Source of the DNA: Patescibacteria group bacterium
GTDB lineage: Bacteria > Patescibacteriota > Microgenomatia > UBA12405
DNA length: 64,000 nt
Reading direction: 5' to 3'
NCBI GenBank assembly: GCA_018902845.1
Contig: JAHIPV010000009.1
Coordinates: 8,950 to 72,949 of the forward strand
Position numbers and translations under genes: made by a program. A model generated the notes under the pieces. It had not been told where the DNA came from. It saw only the letters and a list, made by a program, of their open reading frames with translations, and searched no databases. This document shows positions 5,030 through 53,260 of this stretch, one piece after another (within the stretch, counting starts at the first letter, position 1; each line of letters starts with the position of its first letter).

Positions 5030-6936
5030 TTTTTCTTAAAAATTAAAACTTTGGGGTGGTCGTAGACGGTGAAGGCTTCTTCGGATGTGTCGTCGCGGAT
5101 GTAAATACCGGGGTATAGGCATTGGCTATCAATAGTAAACCATTTATTTGTTTTTTCTTTGTAAGGAAAATTGGTGGGGCCGAAATAATAACATTTTTTT
5201 AAAAATGGCAGGTTTATCCCTGGGTAAGAATTAATTTCTATTAATTTTGTAAAACTTAATTTTTCATCAAAGAGGTTTTGGTAAAATTTTGATGTTTGGG
5301 GATATTTGTTTGGTACTGGCGGGATGGAACCCCAAAGACGATTTGATGACATGATCATATAATCGGCATTATTTATAATTGGACTTAATCTTTGCCATTT
5401 TTCTGGTGTGTCTGGATCGTAAAGCGATAGCATTTGACCACTGTAACTGCTGGCAGTTTGTTTTGGTAAGTTTAATGGAAGAGGATCGTCCCAATATTCA
5501 TTTGTAATTAAGGATTCAATGGGAATATTTTTGTAAATCCAGTTTGATGCCTGAACGCGGGAATGAGGGCGGGAATAGATAGATAGAAAAGAAATGCAAA
5601 ATATAAAATGGAAAATAAAAGTAGTAAAAATGAATTTTAAATTAGAGGTTGGCTTGATAGCGAGCAAACATATAAATGGGTAGATTGGTAAAAAATAACG
5701 CATAGTAGTGACAAATTGAGAGCCCTGAAAAAAGAAAAGAAGGATAATCCAAGCCAACAAGAGAAAAACAATAGGATTGTGATTTTTTAAGATTTTGAGT
5801 TTTGTTCCAAAATCAGTGGTTATAAGATTCCTCGACTTCGCTCGGAATGACACGATTGTTTTGAGAGTGAAACTGATAATTTTAAAAAGTGAAATGAAAA
5901 ATAGGATTGATAGAGGTAAACCAATGCCCCAGAAAACAAGATTTTTTAGGGGGAAAAGAATGGGAGTTTTACTTAGCCATTGAACGGCTGGTGGAAACCA
6001 AGCATCTGGATCATTAAACGACTGAAGTGTTTTTAAATTGTCAATAAACTGAGGGTTGGGTTTGATAAGGGAAACAAAAGCGTATGGCTGAACAAGACGA
6101 AAAACAAGAAAAGTAGTTAGCAAAAAGTAAGATCCGAGAAAAATTAACTTGATTAAACGAATGATATTAAAAAAGTTTTTGGTTTTAAAAAAATAAAACA
6201 AAAAGAATAAAGCAATAACTGGAGAAAAAAGAAGAGCAGAAATTTTAGATGCCATGGCAAGACCAAAAAAAATTGGCGAGAGAAGTAAACTCCAGCTCTG
6301 CTGGAGACCTCGAACAAGTCGAGAGATCCCTCGACTACGCTCGGGATGACAGTTTCTTTTTGTTAGCCAGTGAGATAATAGTGTAAAAGTGGCGAAAATA
6401 AAGAAGTTTAAGAAAGTGTCAACGGCAAAAAAATGAGAGAGCTGAATTGGAAAAATACAGGTTGCGTAGAAAAGGCTGGGAAGAAAATATAATAACGGCC
6501 AGGTGTTTTTTGACTTGGGTGAGGTTTTGTTGCGACTGTATAATGGTTGTTTCTTGAAAATTAACTTTGAAATAAGATACAAGGAAAAAATGTTTAGGGA
6601 ATCAAAAAAAGCTGAAAGTGCGCGACCCAGAAAGTGAATTTTACCGTAAGAATCGAGATTTAGTATGGTGGCTAAATATTTTGTCAAAAAAATAGGAAAG
6701 GTGCCATAAACAAAAAACTGATATTCTTTATAGTTGTATGGATTTAGCGGAGAGATATTAGTATTTAGGTATTGTGTAAAGGAAATCGGAAGTTTTATTC
6801 TTTCGGTTACCATGGTCAAAAATCTTTCGTCTGGGTGGAGATGCTGATCGTTGTCCCAATTAATACCGTAAAGACGAAGAGACAAGGCAAAGAGGAAGAT
6901 AAGGATTAAAATTATTTTGTTTTTATGATTTTTCAT
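5026..6936 (-). CDS. GT-C fold membrane glycosyltransferase (PMT/ArnT-like) with two in-frame repeat insertions
   Basis: 636 aa, polytopic, with an HPDERF loop motif after TM1. Repeat-derived segments are HPERSRGISRLVRGLQ (6309-6352) and SFRAKSRN (5827-5854). Confidence 0.55.
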   Translation of the reverse strand: MKNHKNKIILILIFLFALSLRLYGINWDNDQHLHPDERFLTMVTERIKLPISFTQYLNTNISPLNPYNYKEYQFFVYGTFPIFLTKYLATILNLDSYGKIHFLGRALSAFFDSLNIFSLYLISKLIFKKQPLYSRNKTSPKSKNTWPLLYFLPSLFYATCIFPIQLSHFFAVDTFLNFFIFATFTLLSHWLTKRNCHPERSRGISRLVRGLQQSWSLLLSPIFFGLAMASKISALLFSPVIALFFLFYFFKTKNFFNIIRLIKLIFLGSYFLLTTFLVFRLVQPYAFVSLIKPNPQFIDNLKTLQSFNDPDAWFPPAVQWLSKTPILFPLKNLVFWGIGLPLSILFFISLFKIISFTLKTIVSFRAKSRNLITTDFGTKLKILKNHNPIVFLLLAWIILLFFFQGSQFVTTMRYFLPIYPFICLLAIKPTSNLKFIFTTFIFHFIFCISFLSIYSRPHSRVQASNWIYKNIPIESLITNEYWDDPLPLNLPKQTASSYSGQMLSLYDPDTPEKWQRLSPIINNADYMIMSSNRLWGSIPPVPNKYPQTSKFYQNLFDEKLSFTKLIEINSYPGINLPFLKKCYYFGPTNFPYKEKTNKWFTIDSQCLYPGIYIRDDTSEEAFTVYDHPKVLIFKKK

Positions 6937-32584: not shown

Positions 32585-33835
32585 TTGGACATTGATATGA
32601 CTAAAAAATCCGATGAGTTTTTAAATTTTGCCGATATTTTAAACAACAAAGAAACTGATGAATTGTTAAGAAAAATTAAGCTTGGTCGCAAAGATGATTC
32701 TGCTAGTAAGAAAAAAATAAAAATTAAAGATTTATGCAGAATGAGGGATTATAGATTACAGGCGCTGGTGAATTGGGTTAAGTTGTTTGGTAAAAAGGGG
32801 TATTGGGATTATAAGTGGTTGCTGAGATATGGATGGGAATGGATAAGACCAAAGTGGATAAACAAAAATGGTAGAGAAATTTCTTGGCGATTGATATTGT
32901 TTCCAAATTCAGAGGTCAGGAGATTCCTCCACTTCGGTCGGAATGACAAGATTAATAAATTTTCTCGGATTTTTGATTTAAGGGATATTGGGAGGGTTAG
33001 GAAAGAAGTACTAAAATTGGGTAAATTTGATCCTCTGTGGTTTGCCAGAATTTTTGAGCCAGAAACTAAGGGAATCAGAGCTTGGGAATATGGAATGTTG
33101 TTAAATTATTTCAAAAAGAAAAACAAAAAGATATTAGATATCGGTAGTGGCGGAAGTTTACTGCCTGATTTTTTGGCTAGTAGCGGGGCGAAGGTGACCA
33201 GTATTGATATTGAGAAACCAATGGAAAAAAGACCCGTCTTTGCCAAAGGCTACGACGAGGCAAAGGAAAAAAAACTGGCGAAGGTGGAGTTTGTGGTTGG
33301 GGATATGACGAAATTACCATTTAAAAAAAATAGTTTTGATGCAGTAATTTGCATTTCGGCTATCGAACATTTGGACACAAAAATGGAAGGTGGTTTTTAT
33401 TCCAAAAAAGAATATTGGAATAGGACAATAAGAGCATTGAGAGAAATGGCGAGAGTGACTAAAAAAAATGGGTTGTTTTATTTGACAACTGATTTTTATT
33501 TAAAAAGACAGAAGACGGACAATTGGAGTGATTTAAATAAATTGATGAATAAAGATGATTTTGATTACGACGGGATCCTTCTCCGCCAACTGGCGGATCA
33601 GGATGACGGTGTGAAAAGACAGGGTGACGGTGTGAAAAGACAGGGTGACGGTGTGAAAATTAGAGGGGCGTATGAGTGGAAGAGATTAAAAATGTTTTTG
33701 AGTGAATTAAATAAAGCAGAGTTAAAAATTAAGACAGATGTTGATAAATATAAAAAATTATTAATGAAAGATAAAAATAGATCGAATTATAGAGGCAGGT
33801 ATTTTACTACCGTAGCTTTTGTTGGCCTAGGATGA
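32585..33835 (+). CDS. Class I SAM-dependent methyltransferase with in-frame repeat insertions
   Basis: ILDIGSGGSLLPDFLA motif I and a VVGDMTKLPF..FDAVICISAIEHL segment. Inserted segments are EVRRFLHFGRNDK (32912-32950) and DGILLRQLADQDDGVKRQGDGVKRQGDGVK (33568-33668). Confidence 0.65.
   Translation: MDIDMTKKSDEFLNFADILNNKETDELLRKIKLGRKDDSASKKKIKIKDLCRMRDYRLQALVNWVKLFGKKGYWDYKWLLRYGWEWIRPKWINKNGREISWRLILFPNSEVRRFLHFGRNDKINKFSRIFDLRDIGRVRKEVLKLGKFDPLWFARIFEPETKGIRAWEYGMLLNYFKKKNKKILDIGSGGSLLPDFLASSGAKVTSIDIEKPMEKRPVFAKGYDEAKEKKLAKVEFVVGDMTKLPFKKNSFDAVICISAIEHLDTKMEGGFYSKKEYWNRTIRALREMARVTKKNGLFYLTTDFYLKRQKTDNWSDLNKLMNKDDFDYDGILLRQLADQDDGVKRQGDGVKRQGDGVKIRGAYEWKRLKMFLSELNKAELKIKTDVDKYKKLLMKDKNRSNYRGRYFTTVAFVGLG
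32912..32950. repeat. 39-bp repeat element, in frame in the methyltransferase (same element as 53611-53650)
   Basis: GAGGTCAGGAGATTCCTCCACTTCGGTCGGAATGACAAG against GAGGTCAGGAGATCCCTCGACTTCGCTCGGGATGACAAG. Confidence 0.85.
33606..33668. repeat. Three 21-bp tandem repeats (GACGGTGTGAAAAGACAGGGT), in frame
   Basis: Read directly from the sequence. Encodes three DGVKRQG heptads. Confidence 0.85.
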
Positions 33836-35020: not shown

Positions 35021-36421
35021 TTACAATGTTTTTAATACTAACTTCATTCTAAACTCTACCTGGGAAGCTTTTTCTAAAGAGGAAACCGGAAGAGTAACTT
35101 GATTGATAAAATCTTTTTCTTCCAAGGTTTCTTTTAATTTAAGTAGATCTAGTCTTGTTTTGGCTCTTCCCGTAAATATAAATTCTTTTTTGGCAGAGTC
35201 AAAGTTAATACCAGTGATCTCTATGTTGTCAAAAGAAGATGCTAAAAATTCTTTTATTGTTTGGATCAAAAGGTTGTTTTGATCCGAAATTTGATTAACA
35301 AGAGATATTTTGTTTTTGTAAAAAGAAAATTTGTCAATACTAGCTGTAACAGAAGAATAGACTGGGTCCAGATTTTCTTTCAGGTTTTTGTTTTTGTTTT
35401 GGCAATTGAAATAAAGAAAAAGCAGAAAAAAACTCAAGAAAGAAACGGAGACGATAAAAAAGAGAGAAAAACTGTTTATAAGCCTATCTTTGGATAAATT
35501 TTTGTATTTTTGAGAAAGTGAATATGGCAAGATGTTAATAGTTTTTGTATCTTCAGGAAGAGTAACGTTTTTTTGGGCTAAAGAAATTAAAACTGCCAGT
35601 TCGGATTCTCTATTACTGGGGATGTTTTTTATTTTATTGGAAAGAAGAATGGTTTCCAGATTTAGTTTTTCTTTAATTTCTTTTAGAAGTGAATCAGAAC
35701 ACTTTTTGCCACAGAGATAGATTTTAGGAGGATTTTGTTTCCTTTTTTTTAGGTAAAAATTTTTCATTTCCTGAATAGTGTCCATGAAATGATTGTTTTT
35801 TCCAACCACAGAACAAGCCTTGATACTTGTTTTGCTACCTAAAACCAAAACCGTAGAAATTTCGTCAATTTCGGCAACAAAACTTAGTTTTTGATTTTCT
35901 TTTGGCAAAAGTCGAAAAAGAGAAATCGCGGTGCTTTCAAAGGCTACCGGCTTTAAACCTGCTTTGATAAGAATTTTGGTAAAGGCATTAATTATTTTTT
36001 TGGGAACAGCACTAACAACAATGTTTAGCTTGTTTTCTTTTTTTTTGGTCAACATCCAGTCAAGATACAGTTTTTGATATGAAATAGGCAAAAAAGTATC
36101 TGCCTGAAATTTGATAGCCTGATCAATTTCTGATAGTTCAATATCCGGCAGAGTTAAAGTGTGGACAAAGGCCTTGACTTCCGAAATACCAACAATAACG
36201 GAGGCATCGTCAATTTTTAGTTGGGACTTAATTTGTTCCAAAACAGAAAGAAGCTGAACGCTATCTTTTATTTGACCATTTTGGATGGTTTGTTCGGATA
36301 AGGGAAATTCGTAAAAAAGCTCCAGACTGTCCCCTCTTTTGTTTAATTTGGCAACTTTTATGTTTTGATCCGTAAAAAGAAAGGCTAAATATCTTTTTTG
36401 GGCTCCCCTAAATGCATCCAT
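35021..36421 (-). CDS. pilM: Type IV pilus assembly protein PilM fused to a PilN-like C-terminal segment
   Basis: An actin-like ATPase-fold N-terminal ~300 aa is followed by a TM helix and a ~130-aa periplasmic tail. Confidence 0.65.
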   Translation of the reverse strand: MDAFRGAQKRYLAFLFTDQNIKVAKLNKRGDSLELFYEFPLSEQTIQNGQIKDSVQLLSVLEQIKSQLKIDDASVIVGISEVKAFVHTLTLPDIELSEIDQAIKFQADTFLPISYQKLYLDWMLTKKKENKLNIVVSAVPKKIINAFTKILIKAGLKPVAFESTAISLFRLLPKENQKLSFVAEIDEISTVLVLGSKTSIKACSVVGKNNHFMDTIQEMKNFYLKKRKQNPPKIYLCGKKCSDSLLKEIKEKLNLETILLSNKIKNIPSNRESELAVLISLAQKNVTLPEDTKTINILPYSLSQKYKNLSKDRLINSFSLFFIVSVSFLSFFLLFLYFNCQNKNKNLKENLDPVYSSVTASIDKFSFYKNKISLVNQISDQNNLLIQTIKEFLASSFDNIEITGINFDSAKKEFIFTGRAKTRLDLLKLKETLEEKDFINQVTLPVSSLEKASQVEFRMKLVLKTL

Positions 36422-36446
36422 GGTAGATAAATCTTAACACGCGCAA

Positions 36447-36830
36447 CTAGTTTAGTTTTTTAAAGTCTTTGTCAAAGGAGAAAACTTCGGCTTGGTTAGT
36501 CTGGGCGCAGACAAAAAGATATGCATCTACTAAATCAATATTTTTGTTTTGATAAATAACCGTAGCTTGTTTTAACTCTTCTTTGTTATTAATTACCAAA
36601 AAATTCATACTCAAAATGATTTTTAGATGAGTAACAACATCCTTTTTGTTTCTTTTGTAAACACTTTTTAATACGTAAGCGAATTCAAAAAGAATTTGTG
36701 GAATTGTAAATAATTTACAATTATTTTTTTGGGCTTGCAAAAAATATTTTCGGGCTAAATTGGATTGTCTTGTATTGTCGTTTAAAAAATATCTTAAAAA
36801 AACGTTAGTATCCACGTATAGCTTTTTCAT
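36447..36830 (-). CDS. vapC: PIN-domain toxin (VapC-like), paralog of 3816-4235
   Basis: MKKLYVDTNVFLRYF N-terminus; 127 aa. Confidence 0.7.
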   Translation of the reverse strand: MKKLYVDTNVFLRYFLNDNTRQSNLARKYFLQAQKNNCKLFTIPQILFEFAYVLKSVYKRNKKDVVTHLKIILSMNFLVINNKEELKQATVIYQNKNIDLVDAYLFVCAQTNQAEVFSFDKDFKKLN

Positions 36831-37102
36831 TTTTGCTTATTGGAAAATTTCTTTAAAACATAGTTTTGAGCGGCCGTTTCTTCGATTTTGATTACCTGAT
36901 CTGTAGATTTGTTTTTTATTGCTAAACCGGATAAAGATCCCTGCATGTCTAATAAATTTGGAATTGGCTGAATAATAATCTTTCCATCAAGAATTGTCAT
37001 AAAAAAATTCGATGGAATTTTTATGCCTAATTTTTTCCTGATTTTGGCTGGAATACTGATTTGTCCTTGCCTGGTAATTCTGCCTGTACTTACTGCGATC
37101 AT
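36827..37102 (-). CDS. AbrB/SpoVT-family antitoxin
   Basis: The GRITRQGQISIPAKIRKKLGI segment is a swapped-hairpin motif. Overlaps the PIN gene by 4 nt. Confidence 0.6.
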   Translation of the reverse strand: MIAVSTGRITRQGQISIPAKIRKKLGIKIPSNFFMTILDGKIIIQPIPNLLDMQGSLSGLAIKNKSTDQVIKIEETAAQNYVLKKFSNKQK

Positions 37103-37148
37103 GTAATGAGTTTACATAAATTTAATGCGTTTGTCAAGTTGCATTAAA

Positions 37149-37529
37149 TTATCTTTCTTCTATTGGTGAGAATTGGTAGGTGCCGGAGGAGAAGGTAACC
37201 GTAAGACCAACCATGCGAGAACGTTGGTTTTGCTGACAAAATGAATTAATGTCTTTACCTCCTGTTATGTCGCTAACTTGAGTGGTGCAAGAGATATTGT
37301 CTTCATTAATAGTTTCCCCTGCAAAAGTAGGATCGCGAAGACTCCTTAGGGCGGCGTTTTCTAGATGACCCTCGGCTCTATTTAATAAAATCAAGCCTTG
37401 ACTGTATTCGTTGTCAAGGCTTAACGAAGAAAGACTAAAAGCTGAAGTTTGAAGAATCAAGGAGGTAATAATGGCACTAACAAAAACAAGAATAATCATT
37501 GCCTGTCCCGATTGTTTTTTGTATTTCAT
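37149..37529 (-). CDS. Minor pilin/pseudopilin-like protein
   Basis: N-terminal hydrophobic helix following GQAMIILVF. 126 aa, in the pilin gene run. Confidence 0.4.
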   Translation of the reverse strand: MKYKKQSGQAMIILVFVSAIITSLILQTSAFSLSSLSLDNEYSQGLILLNRAEGHLENAALRSLRDPTFAGETINEDNISCTTQVSDITGGKDINSFCQQNQRSRMVGLTVTFSSGTYQFSPIEER

Positions 37530-37990
37530 GGTAAGGTGGTGGCACTTTGAAAGTGATAGGAGTAAGTTCTGCCTGTCAGATCAAAGCTAATTTTAACAGT
37601 AGGGTGATTTGCGGAAGGACCAAAATGAGTAAAGGTAAGATTTTTGACTTGAACCAAGCTGTCGGTGAGTTTAAAAGTTTGGCCATCTTCGGTTTTTTCT
37701 AAGGCATTGTCGTCGTCTAATTGATAAGTAGTGGCGCCGGCGTTGAGAAAAAGATAGTCGTCACTCTCCCCAATAGTTGGGTAATTTACAGAATTGGCTT
37801 TTTTGACTGTTTGGTGAAAATCAAAAAGAATTCTTTGTCCATTAGTGTAAATTTCAGCCCGAGCTAATTGATTAACTCTCTGTATGGTGATTTGAGAGTA
37901 AAAAGAGTAAAGAGCTACCATGATCGTTACTAACAGGGCAGAGTAGATTATCATTTCGATGATGGTAGTACCTTTGTTTTTATAGCTCAT
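37526..37990 (-). CDS. Type IV pilin-like protein
   Basis: Prepilin-like N-terminus KGTTIIEMIIYSALL with Glu at +5. Confidence 0.55.
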   Translation of the reverse strand: MSYKNKGTTIIEMIIYSALLVTIMVALYSFYSQITIQRVNQLARAEIYTNGQRILFDFHQTVKKANSVNYPTIGESDDYLFLNAGATTYQLDDDNALEKTEDGQTFKLTDSLVQVKNLTFTHFGPSANHPTVKISFDLTGRTYSYHFQSATTLP

Positions 37991-39540
37991 GGTGAATAGT
38001 TGACTGAAAAATCATAAAGAATGGGGGTGTTTTGGCCATCAATACTTTTTAAAAATGCCTTATATCTAAAATAGCGACCAATATTGGCACCTAAATAAAT
38101 CCCCTGCCCCTCTGAATCAGTATAAAGATCGTCGGAAAGATCAGTGCCGGCAGGACCATGATAAAGCCATGGACCATCTGCGTTTTCAGAGATAGCCGTT
38201 TGGAAACCGATCAAGGTATTTGGAAATGTTTGGCCAGAAAAACTGATTCTATTAAAAGCAGAAGATTGATTGGTATCCAAAACTGAAGAAATTAAGGTGC
38301 CTTCTGTAAAAAATCCTCCAACCCCGCCGGTTAAATCCATGGCATCAACATAAAAAATAAGAGTTGGGTCTGAATGATCCATTATTTTGGAAAAATATAT
38401 GGCTTCTAAATTATTTTCATAATCTTCCCCTATTTGTTCGTAATCTAAGCTGATTTCTGTCCAAGTTACAGGGGGTATAGTGATAGTCCTCTCGTCCCAT
38501 TGGCCATAAACAGCCGTAACATCTATTTCAATTTCATCTGGAGTGGGATTATAGGCATAAAAATGAAGATTGCGAAAACCGATGGTACAGATCTCATCAT
38601 AATTAAAAATTTTTACCCACGATCGCCATGAACCGGAACTGGGGGAATAAAGTTGGATTTTCATGGAATAACTTGATTCATTGTAAGTAAAATCGGCGGA
38701 GTTGGTGGATATAACACCATTAGAAAAAAATGTTAAAAATTTACACAAAAGCCATTCCCAAAAACCAAGTCCGCTACAATTGGTGCGCCAACCGTTTTGT
38801 AATTGGTCATCATAGATAAGAGATTCAGGTGAACCTCCCTGGCAACCTCCAAGAAGTTCTATTTCCCCGTTATTTATTGTGGGATCAGTGATTTTTACCA
38901 GATCCATTTGACCACCTTCGAAATCGGAAACCGTGCTTTGCTGCCAGGATAAATTATCGTAATAGCGAGTTAAATATTTACTTTGGGTAATTTGACTCGG
39001 ATGTAAACCTGTCCACGAACAGGTGGCTGCTATTTTTTTTGTTGACAAATCAAGGGTTCCGGAAGAATCAACAATGTCACCATTTTGATTGCGATAAACA
39101 GGACTAATGTCTATATAACGGGTAAAATTATCGACAAGCTCCCCGCTGGTAGTAGAGACAAGAGATAAAATTCCACCATCTTCATTAATAATGTAACGAC
39201 CGTTATTTAACAAATTCCAGTCAGCGTGTTGAATATTTTTTGTTTTTTCTAAATATTCAAGATTTAGAGCCGTGGCTTTGGTTTTTTCTTTACCAATCTC
39301 GGCAGTTTCTTGAGAGACAAAAAATAGTCTGGTGACGGCAAAAATAATTGTTGATAAAACTCCTATACATACAAGTATTTCTACTATTGAAAAAGCAAAT
39401 TGCTTGTCATTGCGAGGTAGTCTTTTAGTTCGTTTCAGAAATCCGCCTTTGGCGGATACTTCGCATTCGCGAGAGATCCCTCGACTTCGCTCGGGATGAC
39501 AGAATGGTTTGCTCGGGATGACACTAGTTTTATTTTTCAT
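37987..39540 (-). CDS. Large pilin-like protein whose leader region is encoded by repeat elements
   Basis: FAFSIVEILVCIGVL is a prepilin-like helix. The preceding ~45 aa (HPERSRGISRECEVSAKGGF...) are a translation of repeat modules at 39406-39525. Confidence 0.5.
   Translation of the reverse strand: MKNKTSVIPSKPFCHPERSRGISRECEVSAKGGFLKRTKRLPRNDKQFAFSIVEILVCIGVLSTIIFAVTRLFFVSQETAEIGKEKTKATALNLEYLEKTKNIQHADWNLLNNGRYIINEDGGILSLVSTTSGELVDNFTRYIDISPVYRNQNGDIVDSSGTLDLSTKKIAATCSWTGLHPSQITQSKYLTRYYDNLSWQQSTVSDFEGGQMDLVKITDPTINNGEIELLGGCQGGSPESLIYDDQLQNGWRTNCSGLGFWEWLLCKFLTFFSNGVISTNSADFTYNESSYSMKIQLYSPSSGSWRSWVKIFNYDEICTIGFRNLHFYAYNPTPDEIEIDVTAVYGQWDERTITIPPVTWTEISLDYEQIGEDYENNLEAIYFSKIMDHSDPTLIFYVDAMDLTGGVGGFFTEGTLISSVLDTNQSSAFNRISFSGQTFPNTLIGFQTAISENADGPWLYHGPAGTDLSDDLYTDSEGQGIYLGANIGRYFRYKAFLKSIDGQNTPILYDFSVNYSP
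39406..39525. repeat. Composite GC-rich repeat block inside the 5-prime end of a pilin-like gene
   Basis: Contains GTCATTGCGAGG, AAATCCGCCTTTGGCGGAT and GAGATCCCTCGACTTCGCTCGGGATGACAG modules. Confidence 0.85.
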
Positions 39541-40001
39541 TCTATATTTACAATTCCTAATTTATTAATTGATATTAATTTACTTTGGCCAGTGGTTATA
39601 TCCCGTAAAGTAAAATTTGACGGAGAAGAGTAATTATTTAAATAACCGCTTACTTTGACAAAGGTGGCTGTTTGGTTTGGTAAATTTATATCGACTATTT
39701 GAAGTGTAGAAGGCAGTGTTTTTTCTTGATTCTCGGGATCTGTGGGGGAAAAAGTTTCCCCCCTAAAAAGAACGTAACGACTGGAATCTAAATAAAGGGC
39801 GGACTGGATGCCATTAATTGTCTGGCTTTTGGCCTGATAAATAGTAGACTTGATTTCTGTAGCAAAAAGCTCCAGTTGGTTTTTTCTTTCTAGATTAGAA
39901 AAAGAAAGAATACTAATACCAAAAAGAACGGCCATAAATGACATGACCAGAACAACTTCAACCATGGTAACTCCTCTGTTTTTATTTATTTTAATTTTCA
40001 T
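39537..40001 (-). CDS. Type IV pilin-like protein
   Basis: RGVTMVEVVLVMSFMAVL is a class III signal sequence with Glu at +5. Confidence 0.6.
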   Translation of the reverse strand: MKIKINKNRGVTMVEVVLVMSFMAVLFGISILSFSNLERKNQLELFATEIKSTIYQAKSQTINGIQSALYLDSSRYVLFRGETFSPTDPENQEKTLPSTLQIVDINLPNQTATFVKVSGYLNNYSSPSNFTLRDITTGQSKLISINKLGIVNIE

Positions 40002-40020
40002 TGGTCATTATGAATTATTG

Positions 40021-40101
40021 CCGTCATCCTGAATTTAATTCAGGATCCTTTCGAGATCAAAACTTCCCTTGGGATCCTTCACTGTGTTCAGGATGACGTT
40101 G
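40021..40101. repeat. GC-rich repeat block
   Basis: CGTCATCCTGAATTTAATTCAGGATCC plus GGGATCCTTCAC..TTCAGGATGACG. Confidence 0.8.
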
Positions 40102-40111
40102 TAATTTTGTT

Positions 40112-41326
40112 TTAGTTGGGTTGCAGTTTGCCAATAAGGCTATAAATTGGCGAAATAAATGTTAGAACCATAAAGCCAACGGCAATGCCAACAATAATCA
40201 TCAAAATAGGTTCGAGAAGAGTGATGAAATTCTTTAAGGAATTTTCTACTTCCTCCTGATAAAAAGTAGCAGTGTCTAGCAAAGTTTTTTCTAGGGTTCC
40301 GGTTTTTTCTCCAACGGCAACCATTTGGGTCATTAATGAAGGAAAAATTTTTGCCCGCAAAAAAACTTCGGTGAGAGAAGTTCCTTGTGAAATTTCTTTG
40401 GCAAATTGGTCGGCTAGTTTTTTTTTGCCAGGAAGAATCAAGGACTGACAAGCAATTTCCAGTGATTCCCCTATAGAAACGCCCCCTTTAAGCAGGGCAG
40501 AAAGGCTTTGGTTAAAACGAGTTAGGTTGTAATGAAGCAGAATATCCTTAAGGACGGGCAACTTGCTGGTTATCAAATAGATTAATCTTCCTCCTTTTTT
40601 GCTTCTGAAAAAAAGTGTTAGAAGAAATATTAATACAGGAACAGAAAGAAGAACAGCGAGACTGTTTTTTTGCATAAAAAGGCTGATGTTTAATAAAAGC
40701 TTAGTTAAAGGAGGAAGCTCTACATTAAGATTAGTAAAAACCTTGCCAAGTCGGGGAAGAACAAAAGTTAGCATGAGCAGACCAATGGCAAGCATAAGGC
40801 TGATAATTATGGCCGGATAAAGAAGAGAGCCTATAACTTTTTTGCGTAAATCTTCTTCCCTTTTGAATTGAATGGATAAATGGTTAAAAGACTGGTCTAA
40901 TGTCCCAGATATTTCACCTGTTTTAACCATGGCAAGAAATATATCGTCAAAAAACTTTGGATATTTTCCGAAACTGGAATGAAGGGAAGAACCTTTTCTG
41001 ATAGAAAAACTTATATCTTGAAGTACTTTTTTGACAGTTTTGTTTTCTGTACCCTTGATTAAAAGATTGACCGATTCTTCCAAAGGTAGGCCGGCATTCA
41101 TCATGGTGGAAAGATAGCGACAAATAGAGATTTTTTCTTTAACAGGAAATTTACCCGAAATTTTTATGTCTGCTGACAGAGAGCCTTCTTTTTGTTCTTT
41201 TAAAACAAGGACCTGATAACCTTTGTCCTTGAGGAGGGACTCGGCTTCTTTTTCCGATGAAGCATTGATGATATCGGCGATCAATTTTCCTTTTTTGTCA
41301 GTGGCTTTGTACTTAAAAAGGGGCAT
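40112..41326 (-). CDS. pilC: Type IV pilus assembly platform protein PilC (GspF family). The start is probably the internal Met at 41326.
   Basis: MPLFKYKATDKKGK N-terminus, two T2SSF-like repeats and three TM helices. The track ORF extends 25 codons further upstream. Confidence 0.85.
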   Translation of the reverse strand: MPLFKYKATDKKGKLIADIINASSEKEAESLLKDKGYQVLVLKEQKEGSLSADIKISGKFPVKEKISICRYLSTMMNAGLPLEESVNLLIKGTENKTVKKVLQDISFSIRKGSSLHSSFGKYPKFFDDIFLAMVKTGEISGTLDQSFNHLSIQFKREEDLRKKVIGSLLYPAIIISLMLAIGLLMLTFVLPRLGKVFTNLNVELPPLTKLLLNISLFMQKNSLAVLLSVPVLIFLLTLFFRSKKGGRLIYLITSKLPVLKDILLHYNLTRFNQSLSALLKGGVSIGESLEIACQSLILPGKKKLADQFAKEISQGTSLTEVFLRAKIFPSLMTQMVAVGEKTGTLEKTLLDTATFYQEEVENSLKNFITLLEPILMIIVGIAVGFMVLTFISPIYSLIGKLQPN

Positions 41327-41362
41327 TAAATAAGAATAGCATGGGAATAAGTTTTTTGGGTG

Positions 41363-41391
41363 TTGACTAAGAATACGGATTGTTGTAGAAT
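41363..41391 (+). promoter_or_regulatory. Candidate promoter TTGACT-17-TAGAAT with a TTGTACAA palindrome, upstream of abiEi
   Basis: Read directly from the sequence. The AbiEi ATG at 41403 is about 12 nt from the -10 element. Confidence 0.4.
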
Positions 41392-41402
41392 TGTACAACA
41401 AA

Positions 41403-42002
41403 ATGAAATATATAGATTTTTTAAGACATTTTGATAAGAGACAAATAATATCTACCCAAAATGTTAGAAATAAATTTGGAAATATAGATAGGCATCATTT
41501 TAGCGTTTGGGTTAAAAAAGGCTGGCTTGTTGCAATTAAAAAAGGTTTTTATGCTTTACCGCAGAAAGATTTAGACGTGCATTTAATTGCAAACAGAGTC
41601 AATAAATCATATATATCTTTGGAATATGCTTTGTCTTTTTACCAAATAATTCCCGAAATAACTCGCGTGATTACCAGTGTTTCTTGCGAAAGAGCAGAAA
41701 AATTTGAAAATGATTTTGGGACTTTCAGTTATTATAAAATTAAGTCTGATTTGTTTACCGGTTATGTAAAGAGAGAGTCAAAACTTAAGGATGTGTTTTT
41801 TAAAATAGCAAGCCCTGAAAAGGCGTTGTTTGATTTGGTTTATTTTAGGGACGATTTAAGAAGTAAAAATGACTTAATAGAATTAAGGTTAAATTTAGAA
41901 AAAAAAATAGATTTGAGAAAAGTCTATAGTTATGTTGAATTAATTCAATCAAAAATAATAAAAAAACGATTATTAAATTTTTTTGATTACTTAAATGCTT
42001 GA
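41403..42002 (+). CDS. AbiEi-family antitoxin/transcriptional regulator
   Basis: N-terminal wHTH-like region and the segment NRVNKSYISLEYALSFYQIIPE. Paired with the downstream AbiEii gene. The track start at 41391 is a TTG. Confidence 0.55.
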   Translation: MKYIDFLRHFDKRQIISTQNVRNKFGNIDRHHFSVWVKKGWLVAIKKGFYALPQKDLDVHLIANRVNKSYISLEYALSFYQIIPEITRVITSVSCERAEKFENDFGTFSYYKIKSDLFTGYVKRESKLKDVFFKIASPEKALFDLVYFRDDLRSKNDLIELRLNLEKKIDLRKVYSYVELIQSKIIKKRLLNFFDYLNA

Positions 42003-42834
42003 TTTTAAAGAGATAAAAAAATATTTTCCTTTAAATGAGTCCCGTTTAGACAGGGCGGTATTAGTGGAATATTTGCAATACAAAATATTAGAGATTTTGT
42101 TTGAATCTAAATTTGGTGAAAAATTGGTTTTTATGGGTGGAACTAGCGCGAGAATTATTTATGGAAATGATAGATTTTCTGAAGATTTGGATTTAGACGG
42201 ATATGCTTTAAAAAAAGATGATTTTGGTTTGATGATAAAAAATTTAGCGTTGAATTTAAAAAGAGAAGCCTTTGAAGTTGAATATAGAAATGTTTATAAA
42301 GGAGTGTTTAGGTGCTATTTAAAATTTCTAAATTTATTGCAAAAATTTAATTTGACAGATTATGAAACTGAAAAAATATTGATACAACTTGATATTAATC
42401 AAAAAAAGGGAAAAGTAAAATTTGAAACAAGAATTATTAATAAATTTGATGTTTTTGCTGAAATTAGAGTATATCCAATAGACATGCTTTTATCTCAAAA
42501 AATAATTGCACTTTTAAACAGAAAGCGACCTAAAGGCAGAGATATTTATGATATTGTTTTTTTGTTTTCAAAAACACAACCTGAGTGGAATTTATTGAAA
42601 AAAGAAATTGGTATAGAAGGAAAGTCAGAATTGAAAGAAAAATTTGAAATTTTTTGTGAAAAAAATGATTTGAAAAAATTGGCTAGAGATGTAGAGCCTT
42701 TTTTGATTAAATCAAAAAAAATTATTCAGGTGGAAAAATTTAGAGATTGGGTAAAAACAAGTTATTCTTTGGTGGCGGCGAAGATTTCTTCGATAGTAGT
42801 AAATCCAGAGGCAATTTTGTCAAAACCGTCTTGA
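41995..42834 (+). CDS. AbiEii/AbiGii-family nucleotidyltransferase toxin (DUF1814)
   Basis: The motif MGGTSARIIYGNDRFSEDLDLD is typical of AbiEii. The 3-prime end overlaps the pilB 3-prime end by 73 nt on the opposite strand. Confidence 0.7.
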   Translation: MLDFKEIKKYFPLNESRLDRAVLVEYLQYKILEILFESKFGEKLVFMGGTSARIIYGNDRFSEDLDLDGYALKKDDFGLMIKNLALNLKREAFEVEYRNVYKGVFRCYLKFLNLLQKFNLTDYETEKILIQLDINQKKGKVKFETRIINKFDVFAEIRVYPIDMLLSQKIIALLNRKRPKGRDIYDIVFLFSKTQPEWNLLKKEIGIEGKSELKEKFEIFCEKNDLKKLARDVEPFLIKSKKIIQVEKFRDWVKTSYSLVAAKISSIVVNPEAILSKPS

Positions 42835-44456
42835 AGCATGGTTACCATACCAGCCTTGACAGCGGCTTTTTTGATTTCTTCTTCGTTGGTCATTTTGAGA
42901 GTAAGTTGGCGAATCTCATCGTTAACTTCCATAACCTCGTAAATACCGACCCGCCCCCTGTATCCAGTTTGATTACATTTTTCACAACCCTTGCCTTTGT
43001 AAAACTTTTGTTTGTCAAAATTTTTACCAAGAGATTTATTGATATGGTCTAATGTTTCTTGACTGGGTTTGAATTCTCCAACACAAGCGGGACAAATACG
43101 GCGGACAAGTCTTTGGGCAATAACTATATTGATAGTGGAAGATAGTAAATATCCTTCGGTACCCATATCCAAAAAACGGGGAATTGCGCCAGGAGCAGAA
43201 TTAGTGTGAAGTGTAGAAAGAACCAGATGGCCGGTAAGAGCCGAATGGACGGCCATATTGGCAGTTTCGGTATCTCTAATTTCACCGACCATGATAATGT
43301 CAGGATCGTGCCTAAGTAAAGATCTAAGACCAACATTAAAATCTAAACCTGTTTTGTGATTGACCTGGATTTGACTGATACGAGGCATACTATACTCAAC
43401 CGGATCCTCAATGGTACAAATTTTGACCTTGATTGTATTAAGAATGTTTAAAATACTATAAAGAGTAGTGGTTTTGCCTGATCCTGTGGGTCCGGTAACC
43501 AGAATCATACCGTTAGGTTTTTTGATGTTTCTTTTGACTATTTCCAAACTAACTGCCGATAAACCGAGTTCTTCTAAATTTAAGGGGCGCGAAGAGGTTG
43601 GTAGAAGTCTTAAAACAATATTTTCTCCAAAAAAACTGGGTATAATAGAAACACGTATACCTATTGAGATTTCATCTACCTTGAATTTGAAACGACCATC
43701 TTGAGGCACCCTATGTTCGTCAATTTTTAGATTAGATAAAACTTTTATTCTGGCAACTATAGCCGGCTGAATGTCTTTGGGAAGAATCAAAACATCAGAC
43801 AATACACCGTCAACTCTCAATCTAACAATAAGAGAGTCTGATTGGGTTTCAAAATGAAGGTCGGAAGCATTTTCGGCGGCAGCATATTCAAGTATGGCAT
43901 CTAAAATTTTTACTACCGGCAAATTGGTAGCTACTTTAAGCAACTTTTCTACCGTGTCTTTTTCTGTAACAGAACCGGCTTTTTTTATATTTTGGGTAAT
44001 AATATCTTTAAACTTTTTTTTGATGTCACGCTTATATTGGTTTAAAGCTCTGGCAAGGTCAGCCGGACTGGTAAAAAAAACAGAAACAGGAAGGTCAACT
44101 TGACGTTTGGCGGTTTCTAGGGCTTCAAAGTTTTGCGGATCTTCCATGGCCAAAGACAGTCCCTTGTCGGTTTTTTCAAATGGAATCATGCGATAACGAC
44201 GGGCTAGGTTTTCCGGTATCAGATCTAATATTTCATCAGGGATTAAGTAGTTTTTTAGCGGTACATAGGGAAGATTTAAGCTTTCTGCGACAAGACGGGT
44301 CAAAACCTCTTCTGACAAAAGACCCCTAAAAACAAGCGTATCGGCCAAAGATCTGTCTAAATCCTTGGAGGCTTTATAGGCTTCTTCCAAATCTTGACTT
44401 GAAAGAAACTTGTTTTTTTTTAAAATTTCGTAAAGTGTTTCTTCGTATTTTTTCAT
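42762..44456 (-). CDS. pilB: Type IV pilus assembly ATPase PilB (GspE family)
   Basis: GSPII_E N-terminal domain, Walker A VTGPTGSGKTTT, Asp box, and a C-terminal CxxC zinc motif pair (CPAC, CEKC). Confidence 0.9.
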   Translation of the reverse strand: MKKYEETLYEILKKNKFLSSQDLEEAYKASKDLDRSLADTLVFRGLLSEEVLTRLVAESLNLPYVPLKNYLIPDEILDLIPENLARRYRMIPFEKTDKGLSLAMEDPQNFEALETAKRQVDLPVSVFFTSPADLARALNQYKRDIKKKFKDIITQNIKKAGSVTEKDTVEKLLKVATNLPVVKILDAILEYAAAENASDLHFETQSDSLIVRLRVDGVLSDVLILPKDIQPAIVARIKVLSNLKIDEHRVPQDGRFKFKVDEISIGIRVSIIPSFFGENIVLRLLPTSSRPLNLEELGLSAVSLEIVKRNIKKPNGMILVTGPTGSGKTTTLYSILNILNTIKVKICTIEDPVEYSMPRISQIQVNHKTGLDFNVGLRSLLRHDPDIIMVGEIRDTETANMAVHSALTGHLVLSTLHTNSAPGAIPRFLDMGTEGYLLSSTINIVIAQRLVRRICPACVGEFKPSQETLDHINKSLGKNFDKQKFYKGKGCEKCNQTGYRGRVGIYEVMEVNDEIRQLTLKMTNEEEIKKAAVKAGMVTMLQDGFDKIASGFTTIEEIFAATKE

Positions 44457-44462
44457 GATAGT

Positions 44463-44578
44463 TTGTCATTCCGACCGAAGTGGAGGAATCCCTGAATTTA
44501 TTTCAGAAATCCCGCCATAGGCGGGATACCTCAGACAAGCTGAGAGATCCTTCGGCTACGCTCAGGATGACGGAGGCA
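44463..44578. repeat. Composite repeat element, second copy of the 21012-21170 family
   Basis: Near-identical string shared with 21012-21170. Confidence 0.85.
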
Positions 44579-44930
44579 GGTAATTTTTGATTTTTTCCAA
44601 CAGTTCAAGCGGATTTAAGTCTGCTTTTAATATAAATTCTTTGGCTCCGTTTTCTAGAGCCTCTTTTTTGGCATCTTGGCTCATTAGATTAGTATAAAGC
44701 AGGACGGTTGTATTTTTGTTTATTCCTTTTTTGATTTCTTTAAGAAGATTTAAGCCGTCAATTTTTGGAAGCATGATATCAAGCAAGATCAGATCAAACT
44801 TATCCTTTATTTTTTCTAAAGCATCTTGTCCGTCTAAAGACAAGTGAACTTGGTGCTGATCTTTTTGCAATTTGGTGGAATATATTTTGGAATTAAGCAT
44901 GTCGTCGTCGACGATAAGGAGTTTAGCCAT
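44562..44930 (-). CDS. Single-domain response regulator (REC only)
   Basis: LLIVDDD...LILLDIMLPKIDGLNLLKEIKK receiver motifs; 122 aa. Confidence 0.75.
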   Translation of the reverse strand: MAKLLIVDDDMLNSKIYSTKLQKDQHQVHLSLDGQDALEKIKDKFDLILLDIMLPKIDGLNLLKEIKKGINKNTTVLLYTNLMSQDAKKEALENGAKEFILKADLNPLELLEKIKNYLPPSS

Positions 44931-45111
44931 GAATTGTGGTGTTTTTTATTAAATTAATTAAATCCTGATTAGAATCATAGGCTTTTTGAAGTAGATTGGA
45001 GTTTTTGTCTGATTGTTTTTTGTCATCCAAAATAAGAGCCAAGCAATTTTTTATAATAGATAATTTTCCCAAAAAATCGTGAGAGTTTACTTTTATATTC
45101 ATGTTGTTTCT

Positions 45112-45177
45112 AAAATCCGCCCTTGGCGGATATCTCGCATTCGCGAGAGATCCCTCCGCTACGGTCGGGATGACAAT
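45112..45177. repeat. GC-rich repeat block
   Basis: AAATCCGCCCTTGGCGGAT plus GAGATCCCTCCGCTACGGTCGGGATGACA. Confidence 0.8.
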
Positions 45178-45179
45178 AA

Positions 45180-45572
45180 CTAATTAATTTTTAAAAAACG
45201 GTTAACATTTTCGATAAACTCACCTGGAGTTAGGTCGCTTTTGATAAGATAGCCGGCTACTCCCATAGCAACACTATCTGCAATGGCGGTATCTTTGCTC
45301 AGGTTGGTTAAAACCACAATTTTGCCATTGGCTTTTTTTGGTTTGGGATCATTTTTTAACTTTTTTAAGATTTCTAGGCCATCGATTTTGGGAAGCATGA
45401 TATCAAGTAAGATCAGATCATAACCACCTTTTAAAATAGCCAAATAACCATCGTAGCCATTGGCAGCTTGATCAACGGAAAAACCTTCTTCGGTCAAAAT
45501 GTCAACATAAAGCTCCCTTAAATAAATTTCATCTTCAACAACTAGTATTTTTTTGTTTGATAAGTTAGTCAT
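45180..45572 (-). CDS. Single-domain response regulator (REC only)
   Basis: KILVVEDE...LILLDIMLPKIDGLEILKKLK; 130 aa. Confidence 0.75.
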   Translation of the reverse strand: MTNLSNKKILVVEDEIYLRELYVDILTEEGFSVDQAANGYDGYLAILKGGYDLILLDIMLPKIDGLEILKKLKNDPKPKKANGKIVVLTNLSKDTAIADSVAMGVAGYLIKSDLTPGEFIENVNRFLKIN

Positions 45573-53215: not shown

Positions 53216-53260
53216 TCTCGAACAAGTCGAGAGATCCCTCCGCTTCGGTCGGGATGACAA
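53216..53260. repeat. GC-rich repeat module in the divergent promoter region of the AmmeMemoRadiSam genes
   Basis: CTCGAACAAGTCGAGAGATCCCTCCGCTTCGGTCGGGATGACAAT; compare 6309-6352. Confidence 0.85.

Follow-up and report, generated by a model that had tools for sequence, protein, structure and literature searches.

Why does a toxin-antitoxin gene pair lie inside a type IV pilus operon, on the strand opposite to the pilus genes? The locus that raises this question belongs to an uncultured Patescibacteria group bacterium from groundwater (GenBank assembly GCA_018902845.1, contig JAHIPV010000009.1, positions 8,950 to 72,949); this whole stretch of 64,000 nucleotides (nt) is referred to here as the window. 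The pair consists of abiEi and abiEii, which separate the pilus genes pilC and pilB. The original prediction, made from the sequence alone, proposed that an AbiE abortive-infection module had been inserted into the operon and that, since type IV pili are common phage receptors, its placement might be more than coincidence. Our data indicate that the pair is very probably a horizontally acquired AbiE cassette that inserted in reverse between pilB and pilC, where it would be tolerated as a selfish insertion at a permissive junction with no functional link to the pilus, and that its overlap with pilB arose later by loss of a stop codon.

An AbiE cassette between pilB and pilC

We found both open reading frames (ORFs) where the original prediction had placed them, between pilC and pilB and on the opposite strand (Table 1), and profile and fold searches support their assignment to AbiE. 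AbiEii matches the profile of the DUF1814 nucleotidyltransferases, which are of the DNA polymerase beta type, and this profile had been named as a check on the assignment (Pfam PF08843, 69.4 bits against a cut-off of 22.5, 5.7e-19), as well as a PADLOC profile across residues 1-254 (2.4e-74). The motifs I-IV that are essential in DUF1814 toxins, namely hG[G/S], R..DhD, K..A...R, and +DxxD (Dy et al. 2014, PMC3985639), are intact as G48-G49, R60-x-S62-x-D64-x-D66, K169...R176, and R182-D183-x-x-D186, and they vary little or not at all across 39 aligned homologues. S62 lies two residues past R60, the position that T65 occupies past R63 in Streptococcus agalactiae AbiEii, and is invariant in the alignment. 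The AlphaFold model of AbiEii has a predicted local distance difference test (pLDDT) score of 89.6, and Foldseek matches it to JHP933, MenT3/TglT, and MenT4 with a probability of 1.00.

AbiEi matches the PADLOC AbiEi profile over its full length (1e-50), and its homologues at 35-40% identity bear PF13338. A profile of the AbiEi family, built from 45 sequences, matches the crystal structure of S. agalactiae AbiEi (6Y8Q) over residues 32-196 (E = 0.0023). The family profile was needed to find this structure, as a single-sequence phmmer search of AbiEi against the PDB returned nothing. The same structure is the top Foldseek match (E = 6e-8, template modeling (TM) score 0.50) of the AbiEi AlphaFold model, which has a pLDDT of 92.8. 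In 72 of 80 relatives AbiEi is encoded immediately upstream of AbiEii, and a contig end cuts the other 8. Judged by sequence, the gene pair is an AbiEi/AbiEii module.

The original prediction suggested that pilC-pilB spacing in relatives could tell an insertion from an ancestral neighborhood. We therefore compared the window with 80 pilB relatives from species-representative genomes, covering 951 kb around pilB. In these loci pilC usually follows straight after pilB, with a gap of 1-10 nt in most Woesebacteria-like loci (e.g., "...GAA TAA T ATG CC..."). The gap in the window is 1435 nt, all of it cassette, and neither neighboring gene is truncated. AbiE was found near pilB in none of the 80 relatives, whether by tblastn or by profile hidden Markov models over the 951 kb. 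Since relatives lack AbiE at pilB, the proposed insertion inside the pilus operon stands. The GC content of the cassette is 26% compared to 37-38% in the flanks, and related cassettes in other hosts lie 2-11 points under their own flanks.

Between pilB and pilC there are just the two toxin-antitoxin genes, with no recombinase or transposase, and a search around the cassette for target-site duplications or terminal inverted repeats gave nothing beyond AT-rich chance matches. Lacking these hallmarks, the cassette is not an autonomous insertion sequence, transposon, or integron cassette. No relatives of AbiEii were found in viral contigs, and we therefore have no evidence of a phage-borne cassette. 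Related copies share the promoter and stop at the abiEii stop codon, and the mobile unit is therefore promoter, abiEi, and abiEii only. We propose a compact cassette of approximately 1.41 kb (roughly 41352-42765) whose insertion point would lie precisely between the stop codon of pilB and the start codon of pilC. Besides abiEi and abiEii, it would comprise only a promoter and an operator of its own, and neither a recombinase nor a 3' untranslated region.

The nearest cassettes outside the sister lineage described below (loci L092 and L093, with AbiEii 67-69% identical) lie in a leuS-tmk-M16 peptidase neighborhood, upstream of tmk in L092 and downstream of tmk in L093. This placement suggests local hopping or repeated acquisition of recombinase-free cassettes. 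The two loci (5340-6771 in L092 and 5340-6777 in L093) belong to related genomes with the order leuS, tmk, M16 peptidase, mreB, in which the cassettes sit on opposite sides of tmk and PIN-domain genes are found nearby.

The insertion is also present at the identical junction in a sister lineage (L089-L091), in which the flanks are ~85% identical to those of the window. We calculated the divergence between the two lineages, using L090 for the cassette (41352-42764), and found that the cassette is approximately half as diverged as its flanks: nucleotide mismatches amount to 7.2% across the whole cassette, compared to 15.9% in pilC and 15.3% in pilB. Third-position mismatches are 15% for AbiEi and 12% for AbiEii, compared to 33% for pilC and 35% for pilB, and synonymous divergence (dS) is 0.25 and 0.22 compared to 0.85 and 0.89, respectively. 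The identity step falls at the cassette borders. The ratio of nonsynonymous to synonymous divergence (dN/dS) is 0.23 for AbiEi, 0.14 for AbiEii, 0.07 for pilC, and 0.05 for pilB, and both cassette genes are under purifying selection.

These data suggest that the cassette sequences coalesce later than their flanks, through exchange or replacement between related populations after divergence; independent site-specific insertion in the two lineages is less likely. We considered AT-rich composition as the sole cause of the low cassette dS and rejected it, by reasoning and with no model, as the difference in third-position GC (0.20 compared to 0.33) was judged too small for a 2.5- to 3.7-fold effect. 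Identity within the cassette alternates between stretches of 96-99% and stretches of 83-88%, a borderline pattern (dispersion 1.57, p ~0.03-0.05) on which we do not rely. On a more speculative reading of the divergence data, recombinase-free toxin-antitoxin cassettes may be exchanged among related Patescibacteria lineages by transformation and recombination.

The overlap with pilB and the cassette promoter

An antisense overlap of 73 nt between the 3' ends of abiEii and pilB had been noted before, and it is present as described (42762-42834). It is not a design feature, however, as comparison with the sister lineage indicates. In the sister lineage AbiEii is 256 amino acids (aa) long, and the TAG stop codon of its gene shares 4 nt with the TAA of pilB. 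Base 42765 is T in the window and G in the sister, which changes TAG to TAT (Tyr) at 42763-42765; the same base lies in the last PilB codon, which specifies Glu in the window where the sister has Asp. As a result, the window abiEii continues through 23 more codons, which lie antisense to the final 23 codons of pilB. The ancestral end of abiEii is 42765 (256 aa), and other AbiEii homologues among the matches listed are 255-265 aa long. Because loss of the stop codon created it, the overlap is a derived, lineage-specific accident; it would have come after the insertion, when the TAG to TAT change added a predicted disordered tail to AbiEii. A single base change is thus able to delete a stop codon and make a long antisense gene overlap.

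The AlphaFold model has a pLDDT below 50 for residues 258-279, and the tail is accordingly predicted to be disordered. C-terminally tagged S. agalactiae AbiEii is still toxic (PMC3985639), and for this reason the tail is probably tolerated and harmless.

The cassette has its own promoter, as the original prediction had claimed, with a -35 box TTGACT at 41363-41368, a 17-nt spacer, and a -10 box TAGAAT at 41386-41391. It matches 10 of 12 consensus positions and is the best match in the region. Promoter-like matches in this AT-rich DNA are no more frequent than expected by chance (9 found compared to 9.7 expected), and we therefore rest the assignment on conservation of the layout and not on the match count: TTGAyT-17-TAgAAT-11-ATG recurs in the sister loci L089 and L090 and in two cassettes of 66-69% identity, L092 and L093. 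The ATG follows the -10 box after just 11 nt, which would leave the mRNA with almost no leader.

Autoregulation had been read from an 8-bp palindrome, TTGTACAA, which we found at 41390-41397. The palindrome itself is not conserved, as the sister lineage has TTATACAA there and the symmetry is broken. It is instead part of a larger dyad of 22 bp (TTGTTGTAGAA followed by TTGTACAACAA, 41380-41401) that overlaps the -10 box. Ten of the 11 positions of this dyad pair in both lineages, the sole substitution between them hits the already mismatched central pair, and an equally good dyad occurred in 4 of 2000 shuffles. More distant cassettes carry other inverted repeats between promoter and ATG, which fits operators that would co-evolve with their AbiEi. 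By analogy with characterized AbiE systems, we infer that AbiEi binds this candidate operator and represses transcription from it.

By the same analogy, a sigma-70-type promoter would drive a nearly leaderless bicistronic mRNA, and the winged helix of AbiEi would bind the dyad over the -10 box and repress its own operon. S. agalactiae AbiEi is reported to induce auto-phosphorylation of an active-site Ser/Thr (T65) of AbiEii (bioRxiv 10.64898/2026.01.19.700257), and AbiEi in the window would neutralize AbiEii probably in the same way, via induced auto-phosphorylation of S62. AbiE has been described as a type IV toxin-antitoxin and abortive-infection system (Dy et al. 2014, PMC3985639); on the view that neutralization occurs by phosphorylation, it has since been proposed as type VII and not type IV (bioRxiv 10.64898/2026.01.19.700257). 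AbiEii that is not neutralized, a DUF1814 nucleotidyltransferase, would block translation, leading to addiction to the cassette and possibly to abortive infection. We infer the toxicity of AbiEii, and any role in phage defense at this locus, from these characterized relatives; purifying selection on the two genes (dN/dS 0.14-0.23) lends this no more than indirect support.

Downstream of the toxin gene, a scan for terminator-like sites on the + strand between abiEii and pilB found none, which makes antisense abiE transcription into pilB plausible on sequence grounds. On the - strand, the scan gave three 9/12 promoter matches within abiEii and a single weak hairpin (41824-41812), none of them above chance level. 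We also considered whether pilC is uncoupled for lack of a Shine-Dalgarno sequence and dropped this idea, as no gene of the operon shows a clear one.

Does the pilus location carry meaning?

We reasoned that an AbiE module with a function in the pilus operon would be expected beside pilus genes elsewhere. In addition to the pilB set, we analyzed 80 metagenome loci of AbiEii relatives, with up to 10 kb of flank and 574 kb overall, and found pilB or pilC near AbiEii in none of them. AbiE in Patescibacteria genomes has been reported, and we found no report in the literature of AbiE within pilus operons. With AbiE at 0/80 pilB loci, pilB or pilC at 0/80 AbiEii loci, and the nearest cassettes beside leuS and tmk, the suggestion that the placement is more than coincidence is not borne out.

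The pilB-pilC junction of relatives sometimes holds other genes, named here by eye. A 132-aa four-helix-bundle-like ORF (L010, 7674-8070) and a 95-aa GIY-YIG-like ORF (L023, 3728-4015) were found at this position. PilZ-like ORFs occupy it in L042, L052, and L067 (Planctomycetia, Patescibacteria group, and Omnitrophota, respectively), and a response regulator with a pilT-like ATPase does so in some Komeilibacteria-like loci (L047, L055, L072, and L083). The occasional presence of unrelated small genes suggests that the junction is a permissive site.

The same operon contains a VapBC pair on the - strand, with a PIN-domain VapC (36447-36830) and a MazE/AbrB-type antitoxin (36827-37102) at a GC content of ~30%. 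It lies between pilM and four ORFs without a Pfam hit downstream of pilC. The unit of ~735 nt is absent from the sister lineage, in which L089 944..969 corresponds to window 36392..37150. Overall, the pattern fits small selfish genes that colonize permissive junctions and not a pilus-specific defense link.

The alternative that survives best is functional coupling, in which the cassette was selected at this site: convergent transcription and an AbiEi operator 54-75 nt upstream of pilC might tie pilus expression or pilus-dependent phage entry to the toxin, or put pilC under AbiEi. We consider coupling improbable. It would account for an arrangement that is kept in two lineages and for the second toxin-antitoxin pair in the operon; it is also compatible with the missing terminator-like site after abiEii and with the geometry of the locus, as any pil read-through to pilC would be antisense to the entire abiE mRNA. 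Yet neither set of 80 loci, over 951 and 574 kb, joins AbiE to pilB or pilC, the closest relatives of the cassette adjoin leuS and tmk, the junction in relatives sometimes holds unrelated small genes (GIY-YIG-like and four-helix-bundle-like), VapBC is missing from the sister lineage, and the overlap with pilB is a point-mutation accident. A cassette that is wired into the pilus operon, such that pilus expression and toxin-antitoxin activation control each other and a pilus-state-dependent abortive response to pilus-binding phages results, seems to us quite improbable.

Several points weigh against our reading of a tolerated AbiE cassette, or against parts of it. The insertion is retained at one and the same junction in two lineages that are ~15% apart in their flanks, and the operon also houses VapBC as a second toxin-antitoxin pair; both observations are compatible with a local advantage. 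For pilC itself, no convincing - strand promoter was found, either in the 76 nt between pilC and abiEi (41327-41402) or within the 5' end of abiEi. The Pfam AbiEi_4 profile, which had been named as a second check on the pair, gave AbiEi only 15.3 bits, under the gathering score of 25, and NCBIfam TAA_AbiEi gave 30 bits (3e-7) against a cut-off of 150. Lastly, S. agalactiae AbiE in Escherichia coli gave no protection against 32 coliphages, and a defense role is therefore not assured for any given AbiE.

The lost native stop of abiEii and the scores of AbiEi under the curated Pfam and NCBIfam thresholds might also be taken as first signs of erosion in a non-functional, decaying relic. We regard this as very improbable, since neither ORF is broken in either of the two lineages (dN/dS 0.14-0.23), every catalytic and phosphoacceptor residue is invariant, promoter and dyad are conserved, and the models are confident (pLDDT 90-93); the added tail is predicted to be disordered, and a characterized homologue tolerates C-terminal tags. 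That a chimera of assembly or binning joined an AbiE contig to the pilus operon, as the metagenomic origin of the genome and the sharp GC drop at the cassette might suggest, has a negligible probability given that the same junctions recur in a sister lineage ~15% different in its flanks and across 14 contigs obtained from independent samples with independent assemblers.

The surrounding operon and known AbiE systems

The features of the locus are collected in Table 1. The exact 279-aa AbiEii and the identical arrangement were found on the 14 contigs mentioned above, from several independent NCBI, ENA, and Logan assemblies. For abiEi, an upstream TTG start is possible at 41391; the ATG at 41403 is preferred because the alignment of homologues starts at Met-1 and the TTG falls within the -10 box. 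The abiEi stop codon (42000-42002) and the abiEii ATG (41995) overlap by 8 nt. For pilC, the start is the ATG at 41326 and not the TTG at 41401, as the alignment of homologues begins at Met-1 of the 404-aa form. The alignment of pilB with its relatives extends to residue 564.

Table 1. Coordinates of the AbiE cassette and the adjoining pilus genes in the window.
Feature	Position	Strand	Description
pilC	40112-41326	-	Pilus platform protein, 404 aa; Pfam T2SSF 1.8e-53
Cassette promoter and candidate operator region	41352-41402	+	-35 box, -10 box, 22-bp dyad
abiEi	41403-42002	+	199 aa; predicted antitoxin gene, first of the pair
abiEii	41995-42834	+	279 aa; predicted DUF1814 nucleotidyltransferase toxin
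abiEii read-through tail	42763-42834	+	23 sense codons (42763-42831), new stop at 42832-34
pilB	42762-44456	-	Type IV pilus assembly ATPase, intact; Pfam T2SSE 3.9e-129 and MshEN

The interval between pilC and pilB (41327-42761) contains only two + strand genes, while both flanks are on the - strand. The wider pilus operon, the cassette excepted, runs entirely on the - strand from 47709 down to 33810. Its order is a HisKA_7TM kinase, two response regulators, pilB, the cassette on the opposite strand, and pilC, followed by the four ORFs without a Pfam hit, the PIN/MazE-type VapBC pair, PilM, a PilO-like protein, and a LytR_C protein. We read the four ORFs downstream of pilC as pseudopilin-like (i.e., minor pilins). 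The closest pilB relatives of the window are from Woesebacteria, and the host is a Woesebacteria-like member of Patescibacteria.

A terminator-like hairpin lies at ~45103-45132 on the - strand (CCGCC-AAG-GGCGG, then ATTTT), between a response-regulator gene (45180-45572) and a 59-aa ORF (44923-45102), and a sub-threshold Rfam P9 match (E = 0.22) falls at the same spot. The Rfam scan of 40000-45200 (E <= 1) returned two sub-threshold chance matches only, and no known RNA element in or beside the cassette. The 105-nt spacer upstream of pilB (44457-44561) holds two inverted copies of a 26-nt repeat, GTCATYCCGAsCGAAGyGGAGGRATC, at 44465-44490 (+) and 44546-44571 (-), and additional copies occur in the window at 5826-5851, 6325-6350, 32922-32947, and 53233-53258. 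By its sequence, the spacer looks like a miniature inverted-repeat element. The sister lineage lacks approximately 117 nt of this region, and its response-regulator gene has a 4-nt overlap with pilB. In a 517-aa ORF (37987-39540, -), the N-terminal ~50 residues (~39400-39540) read FCHPERSRGISRECEVS, and a prepilin-like hydrophobic segment follows. This N-terminus seems to be read through from a similar repeat element, and the true start is therefore probably further downstream.

Among characterized systems, the cassette resembles AbiE of S. agalactiae and Lactococcus lactis: it is bicistronic with the antitoxin gene first, AbiEi (~195-200 aa) combines a winged helix-turn-helix with a C-terminal domain in a fold that matches 6Y8Q, AbiEii has the DUF1814 motifs I-IV with a Ser/Thr two residues past the motif II arginine, and there is an inverted repeat in the promoter. 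Unlike these systems, the window cassette is nearly leaderless, chromosomal, and located inside a Patescibacteria pilus operon, and its AbiEii carries the 23-aa read-through tail. AbiEi in the window is only ~17% identical to 6Y8Q, and a single 22-bp dyad over the -10 box takes the place of the two 23-bp repeats, 3 nt apart, found in S. agalactiae.

The DUF1814 fold is shared with MenAT (MenT1/3/4 and MenA) of Mycobacterium tuberculosis and with JHP933 of Helicobacter pylori, which gave the top Foldseek matches (E 1e-9 to 1e-6), and JHP933 has the same RFSEDLD active-site motif as AbiEii in the window. These proteins are distant in sequence (11-18% identity to the window AbiEii). The other Patescibacteria AbiE cassettes (L092, L093, and the 80 metagenome loci) belong to the same subfamily (43-69% identity) and share the promoter-abiEi-abiEii unit, in many cases with an upstream inverted repeat; unlike the window cassette, they lie in leuS/tmk/M16 peptidase and other contexts, none beside pilus genes. 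The window thus contains a member of the well-known AbiE family in an unusual and apparently incidental location.

The locus provides a clean worked example of a minimal, recombinase-free toxin-antitoxin cassette that splits a tight pilB-pilC junction in a streamlined Patescibacteria genome and leaves its neighbors undamaged. It also illustrates that long gene overlaps, and the pattern of a defense gene in a receptor operon, can arise through accidents of insertion and need not be designs. That the cassette is less diverged than its flanks hints at exchange between lineages which, if true, would be of modest interest for how defense and toxin-antitoxin genes circulate in uncultured, naturally competent bacteria.

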